A stretch of DNA of 59,431 bases from a virus (IMGVR_UViG_3300014962_000006:1-59431), one strand, 5' to 3'. Shown: positions 42,050 to 58,450, counted from the first letter of the stretch. Notes: generated by a model not told the origin, from the sequence alone. A program made the numbers and translations.

Positions 42050-42530
42050 GCCACTACCACTACTAAGTTACTATTTAGTACTTAGTAGCTACTTTACTTA
42101 GTAGCTTCGTGTCACGTAGCAGCTTGGACACAGCTGCGATATGCTCCTGTCTTAGTGACACTTCGGTACCTTCTACTACTCATCATTATACCCAGTAGAT
42201 GAGTAACGAGTAGTAAGCGCGGAACTGGCCAGGTGGCCAACTTGCCGGGAGCTATTCAGTGTTACTTGTTGCTAGCTAAGACTGGGATGCCCACCATCTT
42301 TTTACTCCCCCGTGTCCGGGGTCGCTCCTGAATCGAAGGGGGGCGGTGAAAGAATCACTAACCACACCCAACCAGTTTCTTAGTTCGCTCTAGGTAACTG
42401 TCTCGAATTATTGGTCCAGTTCTTGCCTGCAGGCTCGGTACTCTCAGTTCGTTACTGACTCAACAGTGATTCTTCGCCCGGTAGCTTGGATTCCGGATAA
42501 CCCGTTACGGTAGCAGTAAACTGCCGCTTC
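42050..42530 (-). ncRNA. candidate long structured RNA/leader
   Basis: No ORF of 60 aa or more; many nested inverted repeats; downstream of a sigma70 promoter. Confidence 0.4.
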
Positions 42531-42533
42531 TTC

Positions 42534-42563
42534 ATTGTATCATGACCGTAACGGGCGTGTCAA
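42534..42563 (-). promoter_or_regulatory. sigma70 promoter
   Basis: TTGACA-N18-TACAAT with extended TG. Confidence 0.7.
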
Positions 42564-42593
42564 TATGTTGTCTGGCTGTCAACGTACTGGGGA

Positions 42594-43193
42594 CTAGAGG
42601 GTCTCCCTACCGCTCTTTTCGAGGAAGACCTTAGCAATCTTTAGTACATGAACTATGAATTCGGACTTGTCCATGGCCATTTTCATCTTATTGCAGGTAC
42701 CGCAGCAGGGGGTAACATTCCCAGCAACGTAGCCAAGTGAGGAGTCAACCCTATCAATTCCGTTCATTGTCGTTTTGATAGTTTTACCCCGCTTAGAAAA
42801 CCTCCCCTCATATATCCTGGGTGGGGCATCGCAATAAGTACAGTCTTTCTTTACTAATTTCAGGAACTCCTCAGGGGAGAGTCTCCACTCGATGCCCCGT
42901 TTCACGGCCGATTTGATGTAGCGGAGGTGCTGCAATCTCATAGCTTTAGTCCACCCTCTAAGCTTTGCTCCAGTAGTAGCAGCTTCGCTAAGCATTTCAG
43001 TATGATACTGACAGTCACCGCAGGACTTAATTTTACCGCCAGCCGCGTCGGAACCCCTCACTTCCTTGATTTTCCCACAGTCACATTTAGCCATCCAATA
43101 CACTCCCTTACCAGAACCACCACTCCTGGTGGGGTAGAGTAACGTAAGATGGTAGTATTTCTGACCTTTGTGGTCCCTTCGTCGCGCAGCCAT
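42594..43193 (-). CDS. HNH-like endonuclease
   Basis: W..KCDCG, KSCG, CTYC, NGIDRVDSSLGYVAGNVTPCCGTCNKMK. Confidence 0.85.
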   Translation of the reverse strand: MAARRRDHKGQKYYHLTLLYPTRSGGSGKGVYWMAKCDCGKIKEVRGSDAAGGKIKSCGDCQYHTEMLSEAATTGAKLRGWTKAMRLQHLRYIKSAVKRGIEWRLSPEEFLKLVKKDCTYCDAPPRIYEGRFSKRGKTIKTTMNGIDRVDSSLGYVAGNVTPCCGTCNKMKMAMDKSEFIVHVLKIAKVFLEKSGRETL

Positions 43194-43210
43194 AACTGTC
43201 CTCCAAGTAT

Positions 43211-43239
43211 AGAATATCATAGTGGGAAATGAGGGTCAA
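43211..43239 (-). promoter_or_regulatory. sigma70 promoter
   Basis: TTGACC-N17-TATTCT. Confidence 0.6.
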
Positions 43240-43635: not shown

Positions 43636-43662
43636 TAAAGTTTTTTTGTGAGATGCCGATAC
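43636..43662 (+). promoter_or_regulatory. sigma28 (FliA) promoter, first of the early arm
   Basis: cTAAAGTTT, TAAA-N15-GCCGATAC; A/T tract upstream. Confidence 0.8.
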
Positions 43663-43710
43663 AGGTGTTATAAACAACGGCCTGGTGGCCAAAGATGAGG
43701 AACAACAACC

Positions 43711-44103
43711 ATGGCATATAACCCCTACTCAATTACCCTCCTAAAATGGGAGGACATCGCGACTGCCGAGTCTTCCGAATTCGGTGAGTACGAGAGAACG
43801 GGCGAGGACATGAGGGAATTAACCTATAACTGGGACCTGACTGGACTACTTCAAGCGGCCGACCAATTCGTTTGGTGGATAAGTCAGCACGTTGGACCCC
43901 ATGAGCGGCCGTCACTGGACGCCCGTTTGCGGTTTGATTACGCGTGGGAGACCGTCTATGGCGAAGATGGCGTTGAAAACTATACCAACGGAGAGACCGC
44001 CTATACCAGAGTTACGGTTTTGTTTCCCGAGGGCTTCACTGACCGCGGTCGTTTAGCTTTCAATGCGGCCGTCGAGAGAGCGCTTAATAAACTGGCCAAA
44101 TAA
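43711..44103 (+). CDS. early hypothetical protein
   Basis: SD GAGGA; first gene after the sigma28 promoter. Confidence 0.75.
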   Translation: MAYNPYSITLLKWEDIATAESSEFGEYERTGEDMRELTYNWDLTGLLQAADQFVWWISQHVGPHERPSLDARLRFDYAWETVYGEDGVENYTNGETAYTRVTVLFPEGFTDRGRLAFNAAVERALNKLAK

Positions 44104-44161
44104 ATAATTTAACCGGGCCCCTCGGGGCCCCTAGTGAAACTTTTGTAACAAAGGAGTTATT

Positions 44162-44359
44162 ATGCTTTTTTCTTTTTTAATAAGCAATGAGGACCAAACG
44201 GTCTTCAGAAATGAGGTCACGGGCCTCATTCTCACAGCAAGCGCCAGAGACTTGTTATTATGGGGCTCCGAAGGGCGGTACTGCGGTACTGTCGTCAAAT
44301 GGAGCCAGTATTATGTTGGTTCTAAACCGTTTATTCACGTGACGGAGGTTGTGTCATGA
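44162..44359 (+). CDS. early hypothetical protein
   Basis: SD AAGGAG. Confidence 0.65.
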   Translation: MLFSFLISNEDQTVFRNEVTGLILTASARDLLLWGSEGRYCGTVVKWSQYYVGSKPFIHVTEVVS

Positions 44360-44505
44360 CCCCAGTGCAAGAAATAACGCACCTAATAGGTGCAATAGAC
44401 CGTCTACGGTCTGAGGCTGATAGCGGTGAAGCGCTGGAGCGCTTGAGAACCCTGGAATTGTGTTTAATTGAGGCGGCCCGCCGCCTCGGACAGGAGGCCG
44501 TATGA
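44356..44505 (+). CDS. early hypothetical protein (49 aa, not in track)
   Basis: SD GGAGG; ATGA overlap; MTPVQEITHLIG... Confidence 0.6.
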   Translation: MTPVQEITHLIGAIDRLRSEADSGEALERLRTLELCLIEAARRLGQEAV

Positions 44506-44591
44506 TAATATTCATACTTCTCTATCTATCCCTAATTATTCTTTCACCGTTCCTGATTGTTGCCCTAGTGACTAGGGCATTGAGCTAAAAC

Positions 44592-44629
44592 AAAAACCGG
44601 CCGGGCCCATTGCGGCCCGGTTTCTTTTT
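44592..44629 (+). terminator. intrinsic (possibly bidirectional) terminator
   Basis: CCGGGCC-CATTGC-GGCCCGG then TTTCTTTTT; A-tract on the left. Confidence 0.7.
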
Positions 44630-44657
44630 AGTGGAACTAAGCCAATGCACACCCCTG

Positions 44658-44733
44658 TCACATCACACCGACGATGCGTCACACCGCTATCACATCACAC
44701 CGACGATGCGTCACACCGCTATCACGTCACACC
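44658..44733. repeat. 32-bp tandem repeat, 2.4 copies
   Basis: TCACATCACACCGACGATGCGTCACACCGCTA x2 plus TCACGTCACACC. Confidence 0.9.
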
Positions 44734-44871
44734 CCCGTCACCTATTTTCTTTTCACCGCCCAAAGCCTGAACAGGTAAAGGCGGCAAAGGACAGTGATAA
44801 CTGCCCGATACAACAGGTAAAGGCCGATGGCATGATAGATGCAATATAAATAGCAATAAGAGGAGAGACGT

Positions 44872-45084
44872 ATGGAAACTTTCTACCAATTTCTCGAGGA
44901 CAATCATTATTTTTGGGATAGGAAAGACCAGAACCACATATGGGTAGCCTTAAATGGCTACCGTTGCTATGACGATAGGCGCACATCGCTTGAGGCTGCT
45001 GCTAAACAGGTAAAGGCGGTTCTTGTCGGAGAAGATTTCGATTCCCATTCCGGCAAAACGTTTTATGTCTTTAAACATAAATGA
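44872..45084 (+). CDS. early hypothetical protein
   Basis: SD AGGAG. Confidence 0.65.
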   Translation: METFYQFLEDNHYFWDRKDQNHIWVALNGYRCYDDRRTSLEAAAKQVKAVLVGEDFDSHSGKTFYVFKHK

Positions 45085-45094
45085 GGTAAAGACC

Positions 45095-45259
45095 ATGAGC
45101 ATCAAATATAAATTGGACCTTAGTAAATACAATTTGGTGGAGCTCGAGTGCTTCCTCGAGGAAGGCATCATCACCGTTGATGAACTTGATAGCGAGGTAA
45201 AGGCGCGAGGCTTGACTCACGACTGGGTCACACCCCATGGTAGTAAAGTACAGCACTAA
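45095..45259 (+). CDS. early hypothetical protein
   Basis: SD GAGG; start refined. Confidence 0.6.
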   Translation: MSIKYKLDLSKYNLVELECFLEEGIITVDELDSEVKARGLTHDWVTPHGSKVQH

Positions 45260-45299
45260 TCGTCAAGGGCACTTTAGTGCCCGATACAGGAGACCCATT

Positions 45300-45527
45300 A
45301 TGCTCTTTTCTATCAGGTATGGTATGACAGGTAAAAGCCGGGAATGTGAAGCAGAAGTTTGCTATCGGACGGGTACCCTAGTTTCCGGCTACTGGCTCGA
45401 TGATGACTCTGAAATGACGGACGAGGACCTCCTGATGGTAGAAGAGGCCTTCGAGTATGAACTACGGGAAGAGGCCATCGGCTACCGAGCTGAAGAGGCT
45501 TACGACAGGTGGAAGGACGGAGAATGA
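45300..45527 (+). CDS. early acidic hypothetical protein
   Basis: SD AGGAG; start refined. Confidence 0.65.
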   Translation: MLFSIRYGMTGKSRECEAEVCYRTGTLVSGYWLDDDSEMTDEDLLMVEEAFEYELREEAIGYRAEEAYDRWKDGE

Positions 45528-45567
45528 TTGGGTACTTTGTTGAAGTAAAAAAGTTGCAAAATAGTAC

Positions 45568-45594
45568 TAAAGATTTTTTACGTTCGTCCGATAA
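45568..45594 (+). promoter_or_regulatory. sigma28 (FliA) promoter
   Basis: TAAA-N15-TCCGATAA; nearly identical to 50936. Confidence 0.8.
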
Positions 45595-45800
45595 GTAAGT
45601 TATAAGACGCGGACAGGATGCCGCACCAAGCTCCAAATATACTCCAGTTTAGCTACGTTAGGACAAATTGTCAAGGACACGTAAGTGTCCGCTACAAGTC
45701 AAGGCTTACCACCACAACGCTATGGACGGCGTTCCTCCCTTGACACTACCCAGTAATCAACGCCATACCTTTGTATGGTATCACAATAGGAGACCCCGAT

Positions 45801-46130
45801 ATGAGCACGATTTACAACAAGGCAGTGAAACTCTTCAAAGTGAGACCCGAGTTACTCGAAGATGCCAAAGATGTCGTTAGTTTTTGGACCGAGGATGAGC
45901 TCGAAACTCAGTGCAATGACTTGCTTGACGAAACTTTACCTGAAGTAGTTATCGGTAACTATTCCTATTCCCCTTCTCGTGTCTTGGCTGAAGTTGACCC
46001 CATCGCTCACCGCCAAGAGGTACTAACATATATTGACAACATGGACGTGGTAGAAGTCAACGGACTTTACTTTGACCAAAATGAGATGGAAGATTTTATT
46101 GAACAACACACCACCAGCGAGGTTATATAA
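45801..46130 (+). CDS. early acidic hypothetical protein
   Basis: SD AGGAG; LDE..PEV.IG..SYSPSRVLAEVDPIA. Confidence 0.7.
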   Translation: MSTIYNKAVKLFKVRPELLEDAKDVVSFWTEDELETQCNDLLDETLPEVVIGNYSYSPSRVLAEVDPIAHRQEVLTYIDNMDVVEVNGLYFDQNEMEDFIEQHTTSEVI

Positions 46131-46131
46131 T

Positions 46132-46362
46132 ATGCGTCGTGAAACTGCCACAATAGCCGAAATTGATACCATCCTAGTTGGGAATACCCCCCACCACTTT
46201 GTGCAGGTATATTATACCAGCTCCGATAATAAATTATCGGGGTGGCTACGGTCTACCCAGCCCCACTACATTGGTGCCCTTGTTGAGGTAGCCTTCACCG
46301 AGAAGCAGGACAGATTAGGGAATAGTTACGAGCAACCCTCTATCGTGGGGGTAATCAGATGA
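46132..46362 (+). CDS. hypothetical protein
   Basis: SD GAGG; start refined. Confidence 0.6.
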   Translation: MRRETATIAEIDTILVGNTPHHFVQVYYTSSDNKLSGWLRSTQPHYIGALVEVAFTEKQDRLGNSYEQPSIVGVIR

Positions 46363-46679
46363 GCATCAGTACCATACTAATTACTGGTGGTGGACTTCTA
46401 CTCGGATACTTCTTTGGCAAGAATCTTTACATCCTCTACCGAGTCAAGAAGATACTAACTGAAGGCAAAAATGCCCGCTTTGAGATTGAATGGGCTAGCG
46501 GTGCGGTTACTTATCGGATACTCAAATACGCCGAGGAGAGACATTTACCGATGCTGTGTCGGATACTAGCCACAGTAACTATGAGACAAGACGGGGATAC
46601 CCTAGTATCTGACCAGGTAAAGGCCGTGAAGATTGTTCATAGAAACTGGCCGGACCAGGAAAAGAGTGCTGCGTTATGA
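46359..46679 (+). CDS. membrane-anchored hypothetical protein
   Basis: N-terminal TM helix. Confidence 0.6.
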   Translation: MSISTILITGGGLLLGYFFGKNLYILYRVKKILTEGKNARFEIEWASGAVTYRILKYAEERHLPMLCRILATVTMRQDGDTLVSDQVKAVKIVHRNWPDQEKSAAL

Positions 46680-46849
46680 AAACCGAAACCTTTTTTATGG
46701 ACAGTGAAGGGGATGCATTAAAGTTCGTGGCCAAATGTGCCGAGGAGGGGATAGAAGCGGCGTTGTTACCAGCCAAAAAAGAAGATGGCCGCTTAGTTTA
46801 CCCAGTCAAAGTAAAGTATCACTTCAAGAATGTGGCTAAGGAAGATTAA
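46676..46849 (+). CDS. hypothetical protein (57 aa, not in track)
   Basis: ATGA overlap; MKTETFFMDSEG... Confidence 0.55.
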   Translation: MKTETFFMDSEGDALKFVAKCAEEGIEAALLPAKKEDGRLVYPVKVKYHFKNVAKED

Positions 46850-46896
46850 CCCAGCGACAAAGGACAGCATAGCTGTCCGTTACAGGAGAACATGCC

Positions 46897-47115
46897 GTGA
46901 ACGACGTAATCGGATTTGACAATGTAGCTTACTTTGATTCAGCACAGGAACGTGAATGGTTCTTGGCCAATGTGGAAGGTATCCCCGCTGTGACGATGAC
47001 CAAATTACCCGCCATAACTCGAGACGATATCGAAATGTGGCCGTTGGTTATCGTCTTTGGGGAACCGACCGAGACCCCAATTGACTTACCACCCACTATC
47101 AACGTCCCATTTTGA
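46897..47115 (+). CDS. hypothetical protein
   Basis: GTG start, SD AGGAG directly after a hairpin element. Confidence 0.6.
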   Translation: MNDVIGFDNVAYFDSAQEREWFLANVEGIPAVTMTKLPAITRDDIEMWPLVIVFGEPTETPIDLPPTINVPF

Positions 47116-47126
47116 GAGGAGCTTTT

Positions 47127-47417
47127 ATGAGTAAGAGTGAAATCACTTCCAGTATCCAACTCGCAGCCCGGTTAACAGATGCCCTTTACCGGGAGGGAAT
47201 TGTCAACTCCGACAGCGCTCAAGCCCTGTTTGATGTCCTCGCCGACGCGCTCGAAAAAAGACCCGATGTGGTAGCTTCGGTTAGTGAGGACCTTACTACC
47301 CGGCAACAGGATATCGATGCCTCCTTCAGGGAAGTACTCAATCGACTCGACGAGCTAGAGCAAGACTATCTCCGTACCTATCACAAAACCATCGAGGTGC
47401 GTTCCAATGAAGACTGA
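47127..47417 (+). CDS. hypothetical coiled-coil protein
   Basis: SD AGGAG. Confidence 0.6.
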   Translation: MSKSEITSSIQLAARLTDALYREGIVNSDSAQALFDVLADALEKRPDVVASVSEDLTTRQQDIDASFREVLNRLDELEQDYLRTYHKTIEVRSNED

Positions 47418-47501
47418 GATGAATCCAACCAAGTTACTAAGGAAGAGACTTGTTTATAACTTAAGCGCCAGAATTAATAAGCTAAAAAAGGAGGGTAAAA
47501 T

Positions 47502-47879
47502 ATGAGCGACAATAAAAAAGACAATGTCATTCCCTTCATTAAGGAAAAAGAGACGAGAGCTATTATCAAGTTCCAGTTTAGTGAGGCGAGTAAGAGGAAA
47601 GTAAAGGAAACTCTAGACAATATTAACGCACAAATGGAAGACTTAAAGGAATCAGTAAGGAAGCAGAGGGAATACCTTTCAGGTACGGCACATGTTGAGA
47701 TGCTCGCCCCCGAGGAAAGGCGGGCCGAAGAGATGACCAGCACCCTCAATGAAAGTGAATTAGAAAAAGAGTACAGGAGAAAGCAAGATGAGATGCGGAA
47801 AAAAAGAGAAGAGAATAACCGGAGCGTTACTAGGTCTTATAATCTCCGCCATCCTTCTCGGGACGACAGGAAGAAGTGA
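47502..47879 (+). CDS. charged hypothetical protein
   Basis: SD GGAGG; DNVIPF N-terminus; N.SV.RSYNL C-terminus. Confidence 0.65.
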   Translation: MSDNKKDNVIPFIKEKETRAIIKFQFSEASKRKVKETLDNINAQMEDLKESVRKQREYLSGTAHVEMLAPEERRAEEMTSTLNESELEKEYRRKQDEMRKKREENNRSVTRSYNLRHPSRDDRKK

Positions 47880-48405
47880 GCCACTGGGTCCCCTCGCACC
47901 CGAATTAATGGCTTGGCATGATTGTGGGGTAACGCTGGCCAGCGACAAGGCTGTAAATCCTGAACAGGTAAAGGCCGCGATGTACGCTCTCGGTACGAGC
48001 AGCGTTGATACCTCGCCCCGCTTCTTGACCTTCGCTGCTACTGTTATCGCCGCCGAATCGGGTTTCAATCACCGAGCCGTTTCAGGCTCGGGTGCCTACG
48101 GCCTCATGCAAGTCACCCTCATAGGAGCAAAGGAGGCAGCCATCCAGTGCCGCCTTCCTTTTGCTCGGGGGGTTGAAGACAGTGTCCTCCTAGCGAGGCT
48201 AATGGATAGCCGAGCGAATGTCAAGTATGGAACCTGTCTCTTGAAGTATTATTTGGACCAAGTGAATGGGGACCGTACTTTAGCGTTAGTTCTTTATAAT
48301 GGGGGCTATGTCCAGTTGACACGCTTCCTCAATACCGGTACCTTATCTAAAGAGACAACGGAGTATGTCCTCCGTGTCAGTTCTTACCTTGGGAGATGTA
48401 GATGA
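47788..48405 (+). CDS. lytic transglycosylase (SLT domain), N-terminal membrane anchor
   Basis: IAAESGFN..AVS.SGAYGLMQV, NVKYGT.LL, AL..YNGG, ET.EYV. Confidence 0.9.
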   Translation: MRCGKKEKRITGALLGLIISAILLGTTGRSEPLGPLAPELMAWHDCGVTLASDKAVNPEQVKAAMYALGTSSVDTSPRFLTFAATVIAAESGFNHRAVSGSGAYGLMQVTLIGAKEAAIQCRLPFARGVEDSVLLARLMDSRANVKYGTCLLKYYLDQVNGDRTLALVLYNGGYVQLTRFLNTGTLSKETTEYVLRVSSYLGRCR

Positions 48406-49109
48406 AGTCTTTTATCCTCACTTTAATAGCGCTGTTTTGTAGCTCAACTGCTTTTTCAAAAGGGAAAGTTGAGTTTGACCCAGCTAGGACTATCCTCCTT
48501 AATGGAGTAATTAGTGGTGAAATATATGAGCCGATGGTAAATACTATGAAAGCTTTGGCCAAAGAAGGGGACACTATCAACATCATCATCTCCTCACCGG
48601 GTGGGGAAGTAGTTGCGGGCTCCCTCCTCATCGACAGAATGGAACAGATGAAATTGGCCGGTATCAAGTTCCGATGTGCAGTAAGGGATGTGGCTGCATC
48701 CATGGCATTCCAAATACTGCTACACTGTAACGAGCGGTATGCTACCCCTCATTCCTTTCTCCTCTGGCACCCAGTTAGAATATTTGCTCGTGGTGTGATG
48801 ACATCAGACATGGCGTATACTTTGGCTAGTCAATTAGCGGAAGCGGATGAGGTCGCATTGCACGACCTGAAAGCGTACCTGATTATGCCTGAAGCTGAGC
48901 TACTATGGCACTTCCGAAATGAGACACTCCACCAAGCTATCAACCTAATGCTCCTATCACCATCCTTCTTCAAGAAAGTAACGAATGATATCAATGGACT
49001 GTACTCATCTGATGTTGCCCTTGATACCTCTTCCCTCTCTTCCGGTTTCGGTATCAATCAAGTCATTTACATCCACGAGAGATTCCTATCACCGAAGAAG
49101 AATAAGTAG
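48402..49109 (+). CDS. ClpP/crotonase-like protease with signal peptide
   Basis: L.GVISG, IISSPGGEV, AASMAF (catalytic Ser), LLWH (His); N-terminal signal peptide. Confidence 0.8.
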   Translation: MKSFILTLIALFCSSTAFSKGKVEFDPARTILLNGVISGEIYEPMVNTMKALAKEGDTINIIISSPGGEVVAGSLLIDRMEQMKLAGIKFRCAVRDVAASMAFQILLHCNERYATPHSFLLWHPVRIFARGVMTSDMAYTLASQLAEADEVALHDLKAYLIMPEAELLWHFRNETLHQAINLMLLSPSFFKKVTNDINGLYSSDVALDTSSLSSGFGINQVIYIHERFLSPKKNK

Positions 49110-49224
49110 TAAGTAACAGGTACCTTGCGACAAAGGACACGCCGCTCTCATGGGGAGAGCGCCCTAAAGGGCTGACCGAAGGTCAGGCGACATCTCTGAT
49201 GCCCGTTACAGAAAGGAAAAGAAT

Positions 49225-49491
49225 ATGAGACTCAGACTAGCGTTCAAACTTCATGGTGAGGAAGCGGAGTTAGCCCGGCAGATGGCCGATGCTGCAGGCA
49301 TCGAGCCCGATAAAATAGCCAAGCTTGCGATGCAAAGATATATGCAAGATGTAATGGACCGAGCTTACGCTTACCAAAAAGAAATGGAGAAGAACAATGT
49401 ATCAGGACAATCCAGCAATCCCGACTCAGTCAACTCTTCTGGAGTTGTTCCGTCTCCATCGGACGCCCTTCCTAGCCAGACACCAGGATAG
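49225..49491 (+). CDS. putative ribbon-helix-helix DNA-binding protein
   Basis: RLAFKL strand, helix, AG.EPDKIAKLAMQRY helix. Confidence 0.5.
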   Translation: MRLRLAFKLHGEEAELARQMADAAGIEPDKIAKLAMQRYMQDVMDRAYAYQKEMEKNNVSGQSSNPDSVNSSGVVPSPSDALPSQTPG

Positions 49492-49639
49492 CCGTCGGCT
49501 CTGGAAGATACTTGGCTTCGGGCCGAATGGTGATTACGTGGTTGGGTGGGTGGTCGGCTACGACAATCCGGAGTTGGTCAAGTTAAAGAAAGATGAACGG
49601 GCTTGGGTGTATATCAACAGTGTGGGACCGAATGAGTGA
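49397..49639 (+). CDS. hypothetical protein
   Basis: SD GGAG; overlaps the previous ORF. Confidence 0.45.
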   Translation: MYQDNPAIPTQSTLLELFRLHRTPFLARHQDSRRLWKILGFGPNGDYVVGWVVGYDNPELVKLKKDERAWVYINSVGPNE

Positions 49640-49646
49640 GGCCAGT

Positions 49647-50591
49647 ATGAGTTTACTTAATATCAATCTAACGAACTTATTCTGGTCCGGCATTGCTGAT
49701 GACAGGGAGAAGCATTCGGAAGGGGAAGTTGCCAAGCTTGGAAACCTCCGGGCTGGGGACAGCTCGGTCATGACCAAGGGTGGCGATATTATTGGGGGCT
49801 GTCACAGGAAGTCCTTCATTCGGAGCTTCGCTGGTATCGAAGGGGAAGTTCCCGAACCTGACAATCTACTGATGTTTGAGCTGGGTAAAGCTAACGAGTT
49901 GATATGGATGGATAAACTGAGACGCAGCTGGCCCGGAGCAATTAAGCAAGAAGAAGAAATCCCCATCAAGTGGACGACATCGAGGGGTGTTGCTGTTACA
50001 GGTCGACCCGATATCGTACTCTGTAAAGCGGACAATAGTCCTGTACTCGGCATCGAGCATAAAGCAATCTGCTCCATATGGACAGCGAGGGATGTATCCT
50101 TTGAAGTTGCACCGAAAGTTAAGCATCTTATCCAAGCGGCCCACTATGCGTGGAAGTTGGGAGTCCCTTACCGGTTGGTATATAGTCAATATACTAACTT
50201 CGCCATACCTGATTGGGCTGGTAAGATGTTTCCACCTTCTCATCCTTTAGTAGAAGTAAATGAAAAGGGTAATCCCAAACATGTCAAACCCCATATCACT
50301 GTCTACGAAGTAGGCTTCGGGCAGGGCAACGTTATCCAATACCGTATCGAAGGTGCCCCGACGTGGAGTGTTACCCCTTGGTCAACATCTGACATCGAAC
50401 GATTTTATGAGTACGTTTCTTCTATGACCGAGAAGAAGGTGCTAGGTCCCCGGCCGACACCGGTAAAGGTGGATGGCAAAAAGGCTAGCTACAGTGACTG
50501 TTCCTATTGTCCCCTGGTAGAAGTGTGTGATAAATATGAAAACAACTGGGAGAAGTGGCATGAAGAAGTCAGTAAATTTGGGAAAAGCTAA
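49647..50591 (+). CDS. Cas4-like PD-(D/E)XK exonuclease with Fe-S cluster
   Basis: N-terminal GCHR, GRPD...IEHK, Q...Y, C-terminal CSYCP...C. Confidence 0.8.
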   Translation: MSLLNINLTNLFWSGIADDREKHSEGEVAKLGNLRAGDSSVMTKGGDIIGGCHRKSFIRSFAGIEGEVPEPDNLLMFELGKANELIWMDKLRRSWPGAIKQEEEIPIKWTTSRGVAVTGRPDIVLCKADNSPVLGIEHKAICSIWTARDVSFEVAPKVKHLIQAAHYAWKLGVPYRLVYSQYTNFAIPDWAGKMFPPSHPLVEVNEKGNPKHVKPHITVYEVGFGQGNVIQYRIEGAPTWSVTPWSTSDIERFYEYVSSMTEKKVLGPRPTPVKVDGKKASYSDCSYCPLVEVCDKYENNWEKWHEEVSKFGKS

Positions 50592-50868
50592 TTTGTCCGA
50601 AGAGGAACTTGATGAGTATTATAAGGAAGCGGCTATGGACAGCCTCCTTTACTGGGTGAACTGTACCATATCAGCAGCGGGAGCCAATGCCACATTGACT
50701 ATCCTTACTGAGATGCTGGCAACATCCATTACCCACCTCGTCCCAGTGAAGCAAGTTGATAGGGCAGAGACAGTCATCTTGGACTTGATAAAGGAAAGCT
50801 TTGATATTGTGAGGGAGGGCAGTTCTGATGAGAATAAGGTGTCCAGTAAATCCCCCGACTTAAACTGA
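50560..50868 (+). CDS. hypothetical protein
   Basis: Coupled ORF; start refined. Confidence 0.55.
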   Translation: MKKSVNLGKANLSEEELDEYYKEAAMDSLLYWVNCTISAAGANATLTILTEMLATSITHLVPVKQVDRAETVILDLIKESFDIVREGSSDENKVSSKSPDLN

Positions 50869-50935
50869 TGTATCGGACACCTTCGGCGTCCTTTGTCGCA
50901 TGGTTCTGGTGCTAAGATAGAAGTAAAAAAAGTAC

Positions 50936-50962
50936 TAAAGTTTTTTTACGTTCGTCCGATAA
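50936..50962 (+). promoter_or_regulatory. sigma28 (FliA) promoter upstream of the SSB-like/PolA genes
   Basis: cTAAAGTTT, TAAA-N15-TCCGATAA. Confidence 0.85.
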
Positions 50963-51020
50963 GAGTAGTATGAATGAACTGAGCATGTCGCTCAGTCTGT
51001 ATCAAATGAGGAATAGTTTT

Positions 51021-51305
51021 ATGGCATTCAACAATCAGTCTCAAGGGAATCGTTTCGGTAACAAGTCTGCTGGTAAACCAGCCAGCTCTGGTACTCCCCG
51101 GGCCGCAGGTCCCAAGCCCGAAGTAGTTCTCTCCTCCGGTCTCTTCAAGCCCAAGTCTGAGAAGAGCAAGGCTCTCGCTTCCGTGGCCACGACTATCGAG
51201 CAAGACATCCCAGCTGGTACGACTGTGTATATCGACGTCTACGCGAACGAAGAAATCGTGGACGGGAAACCCACCCACAAACTCCTTATTAAAAAGCGTG
51301 CCTAA
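51021..51305 (+). CDS. small basic protein, possible ssDNA-binding (PC4/OB-like)
   Basis: SD GAGGA; SGLF...KS, N......KPTHKL pattern; biased codons. Confidence 0.5.
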   Translation: MAFNNQSQGNRFGNKSAGKPASSGTPRAAGPKPEVVLSSGLFKPKSEKSKALASVATTIEQDIPAGTTVYIDVYANEEIVDGKPTHKLLIKKRA

Positions 51306-51364
51306 TAACAAAGAGCGGTCGTAAAGAAGGCCGCTTGGTAGCCAGTCTTTGAGCGATTGGTACT

Positions 51365-51389
51365 GGGAGGTGTAGCGCCCTCCCTTTTA
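51365..51389 (+). terminator. terminator-like hairpin
   Basis: GGGAGG...CCTCCC then TTTTAT. Confidence 0.55.
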
Positions 51390-51632
51390 TATTAGTATGT
51401 TAGCTAATTACGAGTAGCGTTGGCGGGACTACTTTACGCAGTTGCTACTGGTAAAGACATAACTTCATGATATGAGGGATGAAATGATACTCGCAGTCTT
51501 CATTTACTTCTGTGCCCATCATGGTTTATTAATTGCCACTCCAGTTGTAATCAATACAATAGCAGTAGGTGCCGTGGCCACTACATATAGTGACAAGGTG
51601 AAAGTTAACTTGCTGCCAAAGTGAGGACATCC

Positions 51633-53837
51633 ATGGACCACGTTACCCTTACTACCCATCCCCGTTTCGTACTCATTGAGCCGAAACCGACACCCGCACG
51701 AACCGGCAGTAACTACCAAGTAGTGTGCCCCCCATGCATCGACCACGGGGAGCGGTTACTCAAGTCCGCCCTCGCTTCCCCGGTAGTGGCCATCGACTTC
51801 GAAACACGAGGCAACGATTACTCGCTCGTATTTACGGAGTCTTACGTAGTGGGCGTCGGCCTAGCTTGGGACAGAGGTAGTTGTTATTTCTCGACAGATG
51901 ATTTATCAGACAAAGAACTGGAACTACTAATTGAACTTTTGACCGAGCATAAGGGATTGATAGCCCACAACGTTTACTTTGACGGGGGGTGGATAAGGCG
52001 TGACCTAAGTCAGCATGCCAACTGGTTAGCGTGTACGTTCGGTCTCTACATGCAGTGCGCTAGTGAGGGTTTCGAGGGCCAAAGGTGGGGTCTCAAGGAA
52101 GCTATGGTGGACGTCTTGATGTGGCAATCAACCAATGAAATTGACTTGGATGAATGGCTGATTGCTAATGGATACAAGAAGCAGAACAACGCTCCCCTGA
52201 AAGGGGAAATGTGGAGGGCACCTGCGTCCATACTTGGGAAGTATTGTGTGTTGGATGCCGAGGCCACGTACTTACTTTACACGGAACACCTAGCCCCGCT
52301 TCTTAAACGGTTCCCCAAACTAGCCGATTATCACCGGCAAGATTTCTTGCCGCATGTCATGGTTCACATCGACCAAAAGATAGCCGGCATCATGACGGAT
52401 AGGAAACATTGGGTGGGGTATGCTACTGAGTTGGAAGCGGCTATCGTAAATAGTGAACAGACGTTCCGCAACCATTTCCTAGTCAAACCGCACGTCGATG
52501 CTTGGGAAAGGGAAGCCCTTGAGGGATTCCTCGCGACTGAGCCCCCCCGCTACAAAAAGAAAAAGGAACGGAAGGAACCTGCTAGGTACACCAAGAGTGG
52601 GGAAGTATCCAAGAACTGGCTGAAGTGGAAAGCCCTTGAAGAGGAGCCGCCAGTTGAAAGTCTTAACTGGAAAAGGTGGCATGACAAAAAGGTTGGTATT
52701 GAGTTTGGTATCGAGCCCAGCTACTCCTTCAACCTCCAATCGGGTGACCACTTGCGGTGGCTCATGTACGAGAAGCTCAAGCATAAGGTATTGTTGCAGA
52801 CCGAGAGCGGCTTACCTGCGATAGGTGAGGATGCTTTGCAAAGTATGGGAGACGTGGGCCAGGTCCTTATCGGGCGGGCGCTCAAGGTGAAGGAGCTCAG
52901 CTATGTATCGGATTATATCGAGCGAGTGGAGCATCGGCCCACGATTCACCCCTCCTTTAAGATGCCCGGTACTGTGACGGGTAGGCTAGCTGGGAAGTCA
53001 CCCAATCTCCAACAGTTGCCGAAGACGAAGGGTGCCCTGTCGGGTTTCATTTCCCGGCCCGGCCATAGCTTCGTCGACTGTGACGTGAACGCATTGGAGA
53101 TGGTGGTGACAGCGGAGCTGTCGCAGGATAAGAACTTGTTGGCTTTGTATGGGCCAGGTGCCAAGAAGAATGACATCTACCTCTTCTACGGTAGCATGAT
53201 GGCGGGCATTGGTCCGCGACTTACGTCGCTGGGATATAGTCCCTATGACCCAATACCGGAAGTAATGGATGCTACGAAGAAGGCATTTAAGAAGGAGAGG
53301 TCAATCGCTAAGCTCCTCATCCTGTCCGATAACTACGGCTCGGGAGTGAAAAAGAAACAGAAGATACTCTCTTTGAATGGTGTGGATATGTCCCTCCACG
53401 AAGTGGAGGATATGCACGATTCCCTCATGGCTGCCAAAAGCGGAGTGCTGGAGTATGTAGCTTGGTTACAAGATGAGTGGAGAGCGAATGGTGGCTGGGT
53501 TGAGAATGGGTATGGCCGCCCGATATGCGTCGATGAAAAATACCTTAAGGATATATTAAACCGCGTGGTACAATCTACTGGACACGACATCCTCCAACTA
53601 TACGCACGTATCGCAGCTGACTTGCTTACGGCGGCTGGTGTGAGTTGGCGTCCAATAGTGATGGACTGGCATGACGAAAGTATCATCGAGGTACCCGACG
53701 AACAGGTTGAAGACGCGAAACGAATAATGGAGATTGACGCATACCGGGAATTGAATAGAATTCTAGGTGGAACTTGTCCCCTGAAGGGGAGTGCTGCCGT
53801 GGCGAAGACCTTAGCGGGAATCAAATTAGAAGAATAA
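51633..53837 (+). CDS. polA: DNA polymerase family A with 3'-5' exonuclease
   Basis: ExoI AIDFET, ExoII AHNVYFD, ExoIII YCVLDA; TGRL...PNLQQLP; motif A DCDVNALE; motif B R..AKLLILSDNYG; motif C WHDES. Confidence 0.95.
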   Translation: MDHVTLTTHPRFVLIEPKPTPARTGSNYQVVCPPCIDHGERLLKSALASPVVAIDFETRGNDYSLVFTESYVVGVGLAWDRGSCYFSTDDLSDKELELLIELLTEHKGLIAHNVYFDGGWIRRDLSQHANWLACTFGLYMQCASEGFEGQRWGLKEAMVDVLMWQSTNEIDLDEWLIANGYKKQNNAPLKGEMWRAPASILGKYCVLDAEATYLLYTEHLAPLLKRFPKLADYHRQDFLPHVMVHIDQKIAGIMTDRKHWVGYATELEAAIVNSEQTFRNHFLVKPHVDAWEREALEGFLATEPPRYKKKKERKEPARYTKSGEVSKNWLKWKALEEEPPVESLNWKRWHDKKVGIEFGIEPSYSFNLQSGDHLRWLMYEKLKHKVLLQTESGLPAIGEDALQSMGDVGQVLIGRALKVKELSYVSDYIERVEHRPTIHPSFKMPGTVTGRLAGKSPNLQQLPKTKGALSGFISRPGHSFVDCDVNALEMVVTAELSQDKNLLALYGPGAKKNDIYLFYGSMMAGIGPRLTSLGYSPYDPIPEVMDATKKAFKKERSIAKLLILSDNYGSGVKKKQKILSLNGVDMSLHEVEDMHDSLMAAKSGVLEYVAWLQDEWRANGGWVENGYGRPICVDEKYLKDILNRVVQSTGHDILQLYARIAADLLTAAGVSWRPIVMDWHDESIIEVPDEQVEDAKRIMEIDAYRELNRILGGTCPLKGSAAVAKTLAGIKLEE

Positions 53838-53860
53838 TAAGATGCAAAGGAGAAACTAAG

Positions 53861-54085
53861 ATGATGACCCCGACCGAAGTATTCTTTTGGGTAGCCTTTA
53901 CGATGTGCTCTGAAACGAAGTTGATACTACCCCCCGGCGAGAAGGAAACAGCAGAGGACAGGTCTGCAGTAGCCCGAGCCAAGCATCACTGCCCGGAGTT
54001 GTATGAGAATTCCCCCTGCGCTAGGGTAGTGGAACGACGCGCCCACCTCAACTACTGGGTAACTTGCGGGGGATATGACAAATGA
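53861..54085 (+). CDS. Cys-rich hypothetical protein
   Basis: SD AAGGAG; C..LY..SPC...NYWVTCG. Confidence 0.6.
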   Translation: MMTPTEVFFWVAFTMCSETKLILPPGEKETAEDRSAVARAKHHCPELYENSPCARVVERRAHLNYWVTCGGYDK

Positions 54086-54288
54086 CCATCCTCGATACCA
54101 TTCATTACTTCATCCAAGAGCACCTAGATAGTACTGGGGAATACCCAGATGTACTCTACCTGAGGCAAGATGAGTATGACTTCTTCATCGAGTGGGCTTC
54201 AGCATACAAGATGAGTACAACTCACTATAATCATTACAGTCTCCCCCACAAAGTAAGAATAGAGTGGGATGGGAAGGTACTCCATTAA
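54082..54288 (+). CDS. hypothetical protein
   Basis: ATGA overlap. Confidence 0.55.
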   Translation: MTILDTIHYFIQEHLDSTGEYPDVLYLRQDEYDFFIEWASAYKMSTTHYNHYSLPHKVRIEWDGKVLH

Positions 54289-54298
54289 GAGATTCTAC

Positions 54299-54325
54299 TA
54301 AAGTTTTTTTACGAACAGCCGATAC
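54299..54325 (+). promoter_or_regulatory. sigma28 (FliA) promoter
   Basis: cTAAAGTTT, TAAA-N15-GCCGATAC. Confidence 0.85.
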
Positions 54326-54359
54326 TATAATAGTGTCCAGTAAGTGATAAGGAGACATT

Positions 54360-54857
54360 ATGAAGTATTGGTTAGTGACTCTCTTCTTGTTGGTTAGCTG
54401 TGGTACTACCGAGCATTGCCGAAGTACCCCAGCCTTTCACGGTAATGACGGGAAGCCCGGTCCCTGCTACCCTTCCCAAATAGCATACCGTATCCACCCC
54501 ACTGTGGAGTACGCAGTGGAACAGTTCGCAGCTGACGCAGTAGGCAGGGATGTTCCTTGCTACACTGTGGACACGGTGGGTTTCCTATCCAAGCTACCCC
54601 CGGAGCTGGAGGATAAAGATGTAGTCGGCTTCTGTAAGTTTCCCATCGAAGTCCGCTTCATGAAAAGGTTTTGGGACAACGCATCAGCCAATCAAAGGCT
54701 AGCGTTAGTCTACCACGAACTGGGCCACTGCGCTTTGAGACTGGAGCACGATGACACGATGCCAGATATTATGAATAGTTATCTACTACCCGAATACTTT
54801 GTTGAGAAAGAATGGGATAGTCTCGTCAATAAACTTTTCGAAAGGGCAAAGAGATGA
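54360..54857 (+). CDS. lipoprotein zinc metalloprotease (metzincin-like)
   Basis: Lipobox LVSC; HELGHCAL.LEH plus Met-turn IMNS. Confidence 0.8.
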   Translation: MKYWLVTLFLLVSCGTTEHCRSTPAFHGNDGKPGPCYPSQIAYRIHPTVEYAVEQFAADAVGRDVPCYTVDTVGFLSKLPPELEDKDVVGFCKFPIEVRFMKRFWDNASANQRLALVYHELGHCALRLEHDDTMPDIMNSYLLPEYFVEKEWDSLVNKLFERAKR

Positions 54858-55087
54858 GCAGTTCTTACGTCAAGGCTAGAGCAGACCAGAAGAGGAAACT
54901 GAAGGGTACCTATCACGATAAACTCTTCATTGCCGCAGCGCAAGTCCTACCTTCCGTGGTACTCCGCTCCCCTCCCGACGCTACTGAAAGTGAAATGGTA
55001 GATGAGGCTGTCATCTTAGCGCGGTCCTTACTAGCGGAACTTGGTTACAAGTATCCCGGGATGGGAGAAGAAAATGAACCCGAGTGA
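54854..55087 (+). CDS. hypothetical protein
   Basis: ATGA overlap; AV.LARSLLAEL. Confidence 0.6.
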   Translation: MSSSYVKARADQKRKLKGTYHDKLFIAAAQVLPSVVLRSPPDATESEMVDEAVILARSLLAELGYKYPGMGEENEPE

Positions 55088-55244
55088 TATGGACATTGCC
55101 GAGGAACCGATTAGGTGGCTGGTGGTATTTCCGGTGGGGTTACTGGCCTTGTCTTTGACAGCCTTCCTCGTGGCCATATCCTGGCCCCCTTATATCGTGT
55201 ACCGACTTATCCGGTACGCTTACTACATCCTCTCGGAGAAGTAA
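55074..55244 (+). CDS. small membrane protein
   Basis: Long hydrophobic stretch. Confidence 0.5.
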   Translation: MNPSDMDIAEEPIRWLVVFPVGLLALSLTAFLVAISWPPYIVYRLIRYAYYILSEK

Positions 55245-55245
55245 C

Positions 55246-55548
55246 ATGACAGTCTTTATAGTGGTCTCCTACTTCCTGGCCTTTGCCCGAGTCCAAATTG
55301 TCGAGAATGACAACGGTAACTACCGACATCTCTTCTCCTTTCGGGATAGTCAGAATAGGGATATCCTACTTCACTGGGAGGGGAAGACTAGACTCGGCGA
55401 TGAAGATACCCGCATGTGGATTCATATTCACGAAATGGAATGTAGTCGGGTGAATACTATAGATGAGATTGAGACGGGGGGTTCCCTTTATCAAGCATCT
55501 AGTAGGACTTGGCTATGTACCGCTAAACTTGTGCAAGGGGATAGATAA
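55246..55548 (+). CDS. hypothetical protein
   Basis: SD GGAG; N-terminal hydrophobic segment. Confidence 0.55.
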   Translation: MTVFIVVSYFLAFARVQIVENDNGNYRHLFSFRDSQNRDILLHWEGKTRLGDEDTRMWIHIHEMECSRVNTIDEIETGGSLYQASSRTWLCTAKLVQGDR

Positions 55549-56072
55549 TGATAAGTAAGAAAACGAAACTCTACCAGAATGTTGATAGATTGAAGGGACC
55601 CCTGACATACGGGAGTGTCCTCGTCATTGACCCCTCGATAGGGAGTACATCCTCCTCACCTGGGTGGGCCTATTACCAGGCCGGCCACAAGATTGACAGT
55701 GGTATTATTCACACCGGGGGGAGTCACCTCCACCTTTGGCAGAGGGCAAGGAAGCTTGGCCAGTCATTGAATGTACTATGTAATGAATACAAAGTGGATG
55801 TCCTTGTCTACGAAGATATCCCAGCTACTAGCGGCTTCAATCAAAATGCTATTGCTAGTCTTCTCAAAGCAGTCGGTATCGTGCTAGCATGTACTACAAG
55901 CTCCCACGTACTGGGAGTCCACCCCGCATCTTGGAAGAAGTATGTCAGACCAGAATATAAAAAAGGCGACGAAGCAGATGCCATCGAAATCGGACATATC
56001 GTTATCTCCCTCGCCAGACATATCCAAGCTGCCGGAGATACTGATGGTGATGGGAGTTCCCTTTCGGATTGA
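55548..56072 (+). CDS. RuvC-like Holliday junction resolvase
   Basis: VLVIDP...GWA, VLVYED, V.PASWKK, DEADAI.IG. Confidence 0.8.
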   Translation: MISKKTKLYQNVDRLKGPLTYGSVLVIDPSIGSTSSSPGWAYYQAGHKIDSGIIHTGGSHLHLWQRARKLGQSLNVLCNEYKVDVLVYEDIPATSGFNQNAIASLLKAVGIVLACTTSSHVLGVHPASWKKYVRPEYKKGDEADAIEIGHIVISLARHIQAAGDTDGDGSSLSD

Positions 56073-56343
56073 GCTAACCGATACCGGGGAGGAGAATGTC
56101 GGGGAGACACTCGGCCTCCACCGGAAGATAGCCATCAGTCAAGACCTTGATAAGAAAAGGATATGGTCAGTTTTAGTTCACGAGTGGGCGCACGCGGTGT
56201 TGTACGCGAATGGGGTAGCTAACATCTTAGACGAGAATGTCGAGGAAGTAATAGCTCAAAGTTTGGAGCATGCTGTTGAGGAGTTACTCAAGCAGATTGG
56301 CCCCGAACTAATTCACGTCTTTAGTAGTGAAGAAAGAGACTAA
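55942..56343 (+). CDS. HExxH metallopeptidase-like protein
   Basis: VLVHEWAHA...EE; start uncertain (overlaps the RuvC-like gene). Confidence 0.7.
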   Translation: MSDQNIKKATKQMPSKSDISLSPSPDISKLPEILMVMGVPFRIELTDTGEENVGETLGLHRKIAISQDLDKKRIWSVLVHEWAHAVLYANGVANILDENVEEVIAQSLEHAVEELLKQIGPELIHVFSSEERD

Positions 56344-56368
56344 AGTTTTTTAGTCTTGGTGCCGATAG
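56341..56368 (+). promoter_or_regulatory. sigma28 (FliA) promoter
   Basis: cTAAAGTTT, TAAA-N16-GCCGATAG. Confidence 0.75.
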
Positions 56369-56394
56369 TAATATTGTAGTACGGGGAGGCAATA

Positions 56395-56571
56395 ATGTAT
56401 TACATTATATTGTTCACTTTCCTTTTATCATCATGTGCCCATCCAGCGCCGAGAGAATGGTGGCCATCCGACCACCGCAAGATGATGGGCGAATGTCAGG
56501 CGATGTGCAGAAATCAAGTCAAGTCTTACAACTCCAATGGAGGGGAATGTCTATGTCACAAAAGAAAGTAA
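56395..56571 (+). CDS. 58-aa Cys-rich lipoprotein (not in track)
   Basis: SD GGAGG; MYYIILFTFLLSSC lipobox; CQAMC...GECLC. Confidence 0.75.
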   Translation: MYYIILFTFLLSSCAHPAPREWWPSDHRKMMGECQAMCRNQVKSYNSNGGECLCHKRK

Positions 56572-56900
56572 AACAAAATTCGAAGCCGGCTGAAGAGAAA
56601 ACACTACCGGACCCAGTTTGTAAAACGTACTTCCTCCTCGCCCCCGATGTAATTGACTCTACAGCTACGTACACTAAAAACCGTGTTACGGTTGTCCATG
56701 ACGAAGATTCCTACATACGAGTAATTGATAACGGTAACGGGTATGAGATTACTGATGTGAGTCCGAATGGGGGTACCAAGAAGATTGATATGGATTACGC
56801 TTTGGCCGCTGATTTGTTTGCCGCGCTTAAGATATTCTACCATAATGCCGGTAAGGTTAACGGCGAGTATTGGACCATCTTTCAAGGGGAGAAGCTATGA
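56553..56900 (+). CDS. hypothetical protein
   Basis: Start refined to MSQKKV, SD GGAGG. Confidence 0.6.
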   Translation: MSQKKVKQNSKPAEEKTLPDPVCKTYFLLAPDVIDSTATYTKNRVTVVHDEDSYIRVIDNGNGYEITDVSPNGGTKKIDMDYALAADLFAALKIFYHNAGKVNGEYWTIFQGEKL

Positions 56901-57193
56901 AAGCTACCCTATCATTCAATCTGCCAGAAGAGAGGGACGAATTCGAGACGGCGGTTAACGCCGGGAAGTACCGGGCTGCATTACAAGAAATAGCCCAGTC
57001 AGTATTCCGTCCTGCTAGGAAGCATGGCTACGCGGATGCCAGGATACAAACATTGGTGGACAAACTGGACCTAGTGAAGGTACCGTCGATGTACGGTTAT
57101 ACGGAAGAGATGGTTGGGGGAGGAACTGAACTAATTTCACAACTCGAGAAACTTTTCTATGAAATCTTGCAAGAAGAGGGAGTGGAGTTATGA
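56897..57193 (+). CDS. conserved phage hypothetical protein
   Basis: MKATLSFNLPEE..EF..AVN N-terminus. Confidence 0.7.
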   Translation: MKATLSFNLPEERDEFETAVNAGKYRAALQEIAQSVFRPARKHGYADARIQTLVDKLDLVKVPSMYGYTEEMVGGGTELISQLEKLFYEILQEEGVEL

Positions 57194-57411
57194 CCCAGGA
57201 AAAGAAAACATTTACGGTGCGACACTTACATACTGGAAAAGACCTGGGAATATTTGACACTGCAGAAGAAGCCAGGAATTTTTGTCAGGAGAATAAGTTA
57301 ACTCCAGTTACTATTCCCCATGGTCACCAATTTATAAGTCCTTTTCCGCTTCCGGATAGCCCCACTGACTTTGTTATGTTTGCTTATTTTGAGGAAGGGA
57401 TTGAACTATGA
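57190..57411 (+). CDS. hypothetical protein
   Basis: SD GGAG; ATGA overlap. Confidence 0.55.
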   Translation: MTQEKKTFTVRHLHTGKDLGIFDTAEEARNFCQENKLTPVTIPHGHQFISPFPLPDSPTDFVMFAYFEEGIEL

Positions 57412-57552
57412 AAGACAATGTCTATCGACATTGCAGTAGCTGTCAACGTACTGTCTTGTCTCGCCACTATAAAATACATATTTGCTCCAGTGTCGGTGAT
57501 ATGCTCCGACTAAAGGAAGAAATTGCTAACACGGTGTGGAGGACTAAGTAAT

Positions 57553-57753: not shown

Positions 57754-57767
57754 CAAAGGAGCGCACT

Positions 57768-58438: not shown

Positions 58439-58450
58439 CCGTATGTGCAA

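Follow-up and report, generated by a model that had tools for sequence, protein, structure and literature searches.

Sigma28-type promoter motifs precede the early and replication genes of an uncultured phage and of several relatives

The genome of the uncultured phage IMGVR_UViG_3300014962_000006, 59,431 bp long and analysed here in full as a single stretch (the window; CheckV completeness 100%), carries in front of its plus-strand early and replication genes a recurrent bipartite element, TAAAG-N15/16-CCGATA, that corresponds to the promoter class of the flagellar sigma factor sigma28 (FliA). The explanation that we favour, with a probability of about 0.6 as judged from sequence, is that transcription of the early/replication arm depends on host RNA polymerase with a FliA-family sigma, and that of the virion arm on the primary sigma. 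On this account, the TAAAG-N15/16-CCGATA sites would be promoters for host polymerase carrying a sigma of the FliA/SigD/WhiG family (sigma28-type), and would start the early genes, which are orphan open reading frames (ORFans), together with successive replication blocks of the plus arm. One tail-fibre gene of the minus arm would also be read from a sigma28-type site, and the rest of the virion arm would be read from near-consensus primary-sigma promoters (TTGACA, a spacer of ~17 nucleotides (nt) and TGnTAnnnT).

The element and its statistics can be read directly from the window. The pattern TAAAG-N13..16-CCGATA has six plus-strand matches and a single minus-strand match, whereas 200 dinucleotide shuffles give 0.035 and 0.05, respectively, with a maximum of one. 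The looser pattern TAAA-N14..17-CCGATA gives eight matches over both strands where 0.50 are expected, a number that none of 100 shuffles reached; the enrichment over a shuffled genome on which the first-pass annotation of this DNA had staked its proposal of sigma28 promoters is therefore present. The five plus-strand sites that it had named (43636, 45568, 50936, 54299 and 56341) are all found at these coordinates. Of three further sites that it had classed as weaker, those at 44785 and 57973 are indeed so, with CAAAG at -35, and that at 2345 turns out to be a full match; two minus-strand matches, one full (26715-26689) and one with TAAAC (58477-58452), had escaped it. In the E. coli aer promoter, a change to CAAAG (the aer213 mutant) cut activity about tenfold, as listed in Table 1 of PMC2859248. 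The sites of the window point the same way as the genes that follow them, with 9-70 nt to the start codon:

43636..43661, plus strand: sigma28-type site, TAAAG-N15-CCGATA, 50 nt before the first plus-arm gene (43711-44103)
45568..45593, plus strand: sigma28-type site in the early ORFan region
50936..50961, plus strand: sigma28-type site before the block of g60 (111 amino acids (aa)) and PolA, with a leader hairpin downstream
54299..54324, plus strand: sigma28-type site before a 165-aa lipoprotein gene
56341..56367, plus strand: sigma28-type site (N16) before a 155-aa lipoprotein-like gene
2345..2371, plus strand: sigma28-type site (N16) within the 3' end of g3, 49 nt before a MazG-like gene
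26689..26715, minus strand: sigma28-type site (N16) in the virion arm, 25 nt before a 1101-aa tail-fibre gene
44785..44810, plus strand: weaker site, CAAAG at -35, 62 nt before the open reading frame (ORF) 44872-45084
57973..57998, plus strand: weaker site, CAAAG at -35, 35 nt before gene 58033-58257

Relatives of the phage were collected through PolA, its family-A DNA polymerase (three records), and through alignment of TerL (65 loci), and nine full or nearly full genomes, the window (G000) included, were analysed with the pattern T[AC]AAG-N15/16-CCGA[TA]. Matches on the replication strand, on the virion strand and in the reversed-sequence control, in that order, were as follows:

G000 (window): 6, 2, 0
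G001: 7, 2, 1
G002: 9, 2, 0
G004: 5, 3, 2
G005: 7, 0, 0
G009: 5, 0, 1
G003: 2, 1, 1
G006: 0, 0, 0
G011: 1, 0, 0

Six of the nine genomes (G000, G001, G002, G004, G005 and G009) carry the motif, and three (G003, G006 and G011) are motif-poor. With 100 shuffles per genome, the observed replication-strand count was reached by none in G000, G001, G002, G004 and G005 and by one in G009, and in the motif-poor genomes by 8 (G003), 30 (G011) and 100 (G006). Among the eight other family genomes, five thus have the motif on the replication strand. Its form is TAAAG/TCAAG...CCGATAAG in genomes G000-G005 and ...CCGATGTTCTA in G009, the -10 extension of the latter being CCGATGTTCTA as opposed to CCGATAAGA in the other motif-bearing genomes.

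Conservation of the sites extends to their positions. The site before the g60 and PolA block is orthologous in all six motif-bearing genomes, and when these copies are aligned, conservation is limited to TAAAG, a run of T and CCGAT. Because the spacers are unrelated between genomes and the two boxes are kept at a fixed distance, the conserved object is a bipartite element. A site precedes the MazG-like gene in five genomes (G000, G001, G002, G004 and G005), the 165-aa lipoprotein gene in four (G000, G001 and G004, with that of G005 two genes further upstream) and the 155-aa gene in three (G000, G001 and G002); within the virion arm, the tail-fibre site recurs in four (G000 at 26690, G001 at 19137, G002 at 17107 and G004 at 43220). 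Of the three motif-poor relatives, two have sigma70-type promoters at the same junctions: G011 (4719) before the PolA block and G003 (20069) before the MazG-like gene. The replication strands of G011 and G003 hold three and four extended -10 sigma70 sites, compared with 0-2 in motif-bearing genomes. Of the arguments for promoters, the strongest is this turnover between sigma28-type and sigma70-type sequences at the same junctions. De novo enrichment of 6-mers in intergenic regions was noisy and gave no alternative motif for G003 or G006.

We infer the identity of the sigma from the agreement of the sites with the E. coli sigma28 consensus, which Table 1 of PMC2859248 gives as TAAAGTTT-n11-GCCGATAA. 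Across 39 replication-strand sites, in which TAAAG/TCAAG, CCGA[TA] and two spacings were fixed by the search, all six consensus positions that the pattern leaves free agree with TAAAGTTT-n11-GCCGATAA. In the -35 octamer TAAAGTTT, the free positions after TAAAG are T in 25, 27 and 27 of the 39 sites; in the -10 octamer GCCGATAA, G precedes CCGA in 20/39, and CCGAT is followed by A in 30/39 and then A in 25/39. The spacing is canonical (11 nt between octamers, equivalent to TAAAG, 15 nt and CCGA) in 20 of the 39 and one base longer in 19. In the window and relatives alike, the sites lie upstream of transcription units in the same orientation, as sigma28 promoters do. As a control, the pattern was applied to a 50-kb flagellar region of E. 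coli K-12, where it finds the tar promoter and nothing else, so that even this loose form is stringent. The core is bipartite, the spacers vary, positions are orthologous in five relatives and sigma70-type promoters take over where the motif is missing; in this, the sites behave as the sigma28/FliA-class promoters that the earlier reading had taken them to be. TCAAG is a variant of the sigma28 -35 element in Pseudomonas. PMC5300878 does not give this variant.

A sigma of this class could be made by the phage itself, and it was sought with profile hidden Markov models (HMMs) in six frames, with controls that matched in 10-14 of 14 genomes. In the window, PF04542 (Sigma70_r2), PF04545 (Sigma70_r4), TIGR02479 (FliA/WhiG) and TIGR02937 gave no match at E values up to 1-10, and the sigma70-family model TIGR02937 gave none in the five other motif-bearing genomes; no FlgM-like anti-sigma was found in the six frames of the window. 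Sigma regions 2 and 4 of phage origin were likewise not found by profile search, in which proteins of the T4 gp55 type were not a specific target. PF00940 (T7-type RNA polymerase) had no match in the window, although its control matched nowhere either. The earlier observation that no phage sigma, anti-sigma (FlgM) or RNA polymerase gene is recognisable therefore stands for profile searches, the polymerase part with a control that had no match. Two large proteins of 1776 and 1153 aa were considered as candidate virion polymerases: neither has a PHROG, Pfam or PDB match or polymerase features, and the 1776-aa protein has no DxDxD motif and, by eye, C-terminal blocks that are conserved and repeat-like and look structural. 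Since the phage bears no detectable sigma, it could express its early and replication genes only if sigma28 were active in the cell that it infects.

A phyletic screen returned only two genes whose presence follows the motif, each found in the five other motif-bearing genomes and missing from all three that are motif-poor:

1903-2418, plus strand: g3, 171 aa, co-occurring with the motif
4600-4845, minus strand: gene for an 81-aa membrane protein, co-occurring with the motif

The sequence of g3 looks by eye like a PD-(D/E)XK nuclease. Its AlphaFold2 model, which is of low confidence (predicted local distance difference test score, pLDDT, 44), has mixed strands and helices and is not all-helical, and a PDB profile search with g3 gave matches at chance level only.

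The same promoter class is also found clustered in viral contigs outside this family. An exact scan of IMG/VR for the 16 bases that the E. coli consensus specifies matched at least 120 stretches, with two to four matches in 11 of 80 among the matches listed, whereas the reversed pattern matched 40 stretches, all of them once. Five multi-match contigs (G017, G018, G019, G020 and G021; G+C content 32-55%, incomplete records), all unrelated to the window's phage family, each hold 3-11 co-oriented TAAAG-N15/16-CCGAT sites. Two of the five, G017 and G021, were checked for phage genes. G017 has ten co-oriented sites in its first 5 kb and encodes a RecE-like exonuclease, a ParB-methyltransferase and a PAPS reductase; G021 encodes portal, terminase and head-morphogenesis proteins, and its sigma28-type sites diverge from ~13.3 kb, before portal and exonuclease genes alike. 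The five have no protein family in common, and a sigma was found in none of them apart from one weak 85-aa match. As unrelated contigs share the same consensus and no common protein family, a conserved host factor explains the sites better than a shared phage factor. The exact-consensus clusters suggest that the phenomenon is broader than the window's phage family. That several unrelated lineages of uncultured phages use the host sigma28 holoenzyme for their early and replication programme (some of them for nearly all genes), with no sigma of their own, is a tentative extension, on which we would set odds somewhat short of even.

The gene content of the window falls into two arms, of which the early/replication arm continues past the ends of the record:

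43711..59293, plus strand: early/replication arm, part 1, with ORFans, SLT lysozyme, ClpP-like protease, Cas4/RecB-like protein, g60, PolA, RuvC and C5 methyltransferase
39..4356, plus strand: early/replication arm, part 2 (past the record ends), with helicase, HNH endonuclease, g3, the MazG-like gene and small genes
4353..43220, minus strand: virion arm, with a TerS-like gene, TerL, portal, SU10-type adaptor, tail fibres and the 1776-aa and 1153-aa proteins
51621-53837, plus strand: PolA (family-A DNA polymerase), 738 aa
36132-37589, minus strand: TerL
33839-35872, minus strand: portal
20794-21771, minus strand: SU10-type adaptor

No cultured relative was found by DNA search, PolA matches reach only 23-26% identity, and the searches for relatives gave one uncultured match for TerL and none for the portal. 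The ESM Atlas yielded viral terminase clusters only, and a search of 5.8 billion proteins brought up no taxon names. The methyltransferase was tried as a clue to the host and set aside as uninformative, its matches on genome contigs (Lachnospiraceae, Clostridia and Cytobacillus records) being of only 26-29% identity. Family searches of the window's proteins left most early ORFs without any assignment, and the window has no tRNA genes and no Rfam match. The label 'SSB-like', which had been given to the gene after 50936 (g60), was not borne out, as sequence searches of PHROGs, Pfam and PDB came back empty.

In the virion arm, a generic sigma70 scan recovers all ten minus-strand promoters that had been listed before, and is itself barely enriched overall (28 vs 22.3, 29 vs 19.2 and 27 vs 24.5). 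Stricter patterns separate the strands: TTGAC[ACG]-N14-16-TGnTAnnnT occurs 0 times on the plus strand and seven times on the minus strand (0.15 and 0.13 in shuffles), and TTGACA-N16-18-TAnnnT twice and 12 times (0.82 and 0.62). The virion-arm sites combine TTGACA, a spacer of 16-18 nt, TGnTAnnnT and a position before genes, the marks of extended -10 primary-sigma promoters:

43211..43239, minus strand: sigma70-type, extended -10 (TTGACC-N-TGATATTCT), heading the virion arm and followed by the HNH-like 208-aa gene
42534..42563, minus strand: sigma70-type (TTGACA-18-TACAAT, with TG), before the TerS-like gene
41478..41506, minus strand: sigma70-type, extended -10, before g39; in the same place in G001, G002, G003, G004 and G005
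38056..38085, minus strand: sigma70-type (TTTACA-18-TATCTT, with TG), just past the terminator-like hairpin 38121-38098 and before gene 37638-38018 and TerL
33401..33429, minus strand: sigma70-type (TTGACA-17-TAGTAT), before a 373-aa gene
30058..30086, minus strand: sigma70-type, extended -10, before a 623-aa structural gene
28150..28178, minus strand: sigma70-type, extended -10, before a 463-aa tail gene
22343..22371, minus strand: sigma70-type, extended -10, before the adaptor-gene block; in the same place in five genomes
14336..14592, minus strand: two tandem sigma70-type promoters (14592-14565 and 14364-14336), before an 816-aa gene

These sites occupy orthologous places before gene blocks in relatives, and in the TerL-flanking loci, taken in three identity bands, sigma70-type sites on the TerL strand and on the other strand number 45 vs 4, 12 vs 0 and 16 vs 3. 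A sigma70-like match at 51533-51560, before PolA, was rejected, as it lies inside a conserved ORF for a small membrane protein and has no counterpart in G004. The virion-arm promoters were not seen to share any operator-like element. The division of labour claimed at the outset holds insofar as sigma28-type sites mark the plus arm and extended -10 sigma70-type sites the virion arm; it is not clean, as four genomes have a conserved sigma28-type site in front of the tail-fibre gene. Strong terminator-like hairpins (23304-23333 and 38098-38121, minus strand) follow both tail-fibre genes, and with a sigma28-type promoter before it and a terminator after it, the 1101-aa fibre gene looks like a unit of its own inside the sigma70 arm.

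Several further features of the two arms were recorded. The first virion-arm gene (42594-43220, minus strand) encodes a 208-aa HNH/endonuclease VII-like protein, which also has weak PHROG matches, over the same residues, to the T4 Srd and 'decoy of host sigma70' families, and which is kept in motif-bearing and motif-poor relatives alike. Some 400 nt of G+C-rich non-coding DNA (43240-43635) separate the divergent sigma70-type and sigma28-type promoters. At 44648-44741, in the early region, there is an iteron-like tandem repeat (period 16/32, 2.7-5.9 copies) that overlaps a doubtful ORF with a TTG start. It could serve as an origin or as an array of protein-binding sites, and a tandem repeat of another kind occurs at the record ends of G001. 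The PolA ORFs of G001 (47765-50962, 1065 aa) and G002 (48941-52075, 1044 aa) are ~300 aa longer than the 738 aa of the window, which suggests that a segment has been inserted, for instance an intein or an additional domain.

Around g60, a leader hairpin of ~7-11 bp begins ~15-20 nt past the -10 box in all six motif-bearing genomes (50968-51010 in the window); the hairpin sequences differ between genomes, single folds give z-scores of -0.5 to -4.5, and the stem may serve stability or autoregulation. The gap between g60 and PolA contains a stem-loop (51365-51384) with a conserved GTAGCGC loop and no Rfam match, followed in G000, G002 and G004 by an element that contains AGCGTTGGCGGGA (~51410-51450); G005 has the stem-loop only. 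In G011, a palindromic element, CTGTCAAGGA..ATACAGGT, is repeated in several early intergenic regions between 52.1 and 55.5 kb and looks like an operator. In G001, G005, G006 and G011, what look like direct terminal repeats span just 55-127 bp, and we take them as overlaps from circular assembly; they are for that reason uninformative as to which end of the DNA enters first.

A number of observations weigh against the explanation that we favour. The background of the loose pattern is above zero, with three matches in a reversed 50-kb stretch of E. coli, and the conservation of the site at 2345 may reflect the protein, since the site lies inside conserved coding sequence. Profile HMMs would not detect a sigma that has diverged strongly, nor a small appropriator protein, and most early ORFs belong to no family; g3 keeps company with the motif. 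It is unusual for late genes to have strong consensus sigma70 promoters, and nothing that we found explains how they would be held off early in infection; being near-consensus, they would fire at once unless held back, so that the two arms may be co-expressed.

This last point leads to the best-surviving alternative, in which the sigma28-type promoters are genuine and the inverted temporal or host-phase programme is not: both arms would be expressed together, with sigma28 giving low output for enzymes and sigma70 high output for virion proteins, and copy number would provide the timing. The near-consensus -35 and extended -10 elements of the virion arm and the lack of any common operator-like element seen among them are as it would predict, as are the sigma28-type site that serves a late tail-fibre gene in four genomes and the sites of G021 that precede portal and exonuclease genes without distinction. 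In five genomes, the promoter classes are strictly divided by strand, which suggests instead that the arms are separately regulated, and we consider co-expression somewhat unlikely.

Less probable still is that the promoters are read through a phage-made factor that cannot be recognised, such as a divergent sigma or appropriators like AsiA/MotA of T4, either packed in the virion or expressed from a sigma70 promoter. The many orphan early ORFs leave room for such a factor, and the distribution of g3, present in 5/5 other motif-bearing and 0/3 motif-poor genomes, is what would be expected of its gene. SU10, whose type of adaptor the phage possesses, is presumably a phiEco32-like phage. Phages of the phiEco32 kind are described as encoding a sigma (PMC8948821, PMC12276001). 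As the first early gene already has the motif, however, the factor would have to enter with the DNA. No sigma70-family region appeared in six-frame searches of any of the six motif-bearing genomes, the motif is identical to the cellular sigma28 consensus at each of the six positions that the search left free, and unrelated contigs carry the same promoter clusters without a common protein family; g3, for its part, is nuclease-like by eye, and its low-confidence model is not all-helical.

It is very improbable that the sites are not promoters at all and are instead bound by a phage protein in replication, packaging or repression, or arise by compositional chance: the extra bases that the copies of the window have in common, ACTAAAGTTTTTTTACG, do resemble repeated operators, but the spacers of the relatives are wholly different and only the two boxes at their fixed distance are kept, the sites are co-oriented and lie 9-70 nt upstream of genes, sigma70-type promoters substitute for them in two relatives, and the shuffles exclude chance.

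If host polymerase with a FliA-family sigma does read the early arm, the consequences would concern both infection and annotation. Lytic phages of the textbook kind use the host housekeeping sigma first and then change the specificity of the polymerase with factors of their own. In flagellated bacteria, sigma28 is free only after the anti-sigma FlgM has been exported through the finished hook-basal body. Were the earliest genes to have promoters of the flagellar-sigma class only, the start of infection would be bound to a particular physiological state, that of motile cells in which sigma28 is free, and productive infection would be gated by the motility state of the host, that is, by a finished flagellar export apparatus and exported FlgM. 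Such gating would suit phages that locate their hosts via flagella; the timing of expression, with sigma28 early and sigma70 late, and its coupling to the state of the host are inferences. Were the sites to represent a general and overlooked class of phage promoter, they would also add to phage annotation, which is normally scanned for sigma70 only, and would give a host clue from sequence alone, as the host should have a FliA-family sigma. The turnover of sigma28-type and sigma70-type promoters at the same junctions would be a natural experiment in the switching of regulatory dependence. Transcription of phages by host polymerase is itself already known, and the new element would be the flagellar sigma: in the literature on phage use of sigma28/FliA promoters, we found no phage with sigma28-dependent early or replication genes.

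Four known systems invite comparison. The attack-phase promoters of Bdellovibrio bacteriovorus, which had been brought in as a parallel for this phage, have the form TTAAG-N16-CCGATA in 92 of 140 mapped promoters, as reported in PMC3627812. They resemble the phage sites in their CCGATA -10 box, in the N16 spacing class and in the idea that FliA drives a large non-flagellar programme, but the phage -35 is TAAAG or TCAAG and not TTAAG. A one-mismatch scan of G000-G003 for TTAAG...CCGATA returned a single site, on the wrong strand of G001, whereas TAAAG and TCAAG alone give 5-9 replication-strand sites per motif-bearing genome; the link to Bdellovibrio is thus without support.

In phages of the phiEco32 and 7-11 type, the alternative sigma serves middle and late genes. 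The phage of the window would be distantly akin to them in structure through its SU10-type adaptor, if SU10 is rightly taken as phiEco32-like, and resembles them in that host core polymerase would be combined with a non-primary promoter class. Those phages, however, are described as encoding their own sigma together with an inhibitor of host sigma70 (PMC8948821, PMC12276001), and none is detectable here.

The class 3 flagellar and chemotaxis promoters of E. coli and Salmonella have the same -35 and -10 octamers and spacing as the phage sites, which differ from them in preceding early and replication genes rather than motility genes and in the extra spacer base of 19 of the 39. T4, which reportedly appropriates the host sigma through AsiA/MotA and uses a late sigma, gp55, offers a parallel in that a temporal class of genes is marked out by promoters of a kind that the primary holoenzyme, when unmodified, does not recognise. 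T4 is said to make its own specificity factors and to use sigma70 for its early genes, whereas in the phage described here the alternative-sigma promoters would stand on the early arm and the sigma70 promoters on the late one.

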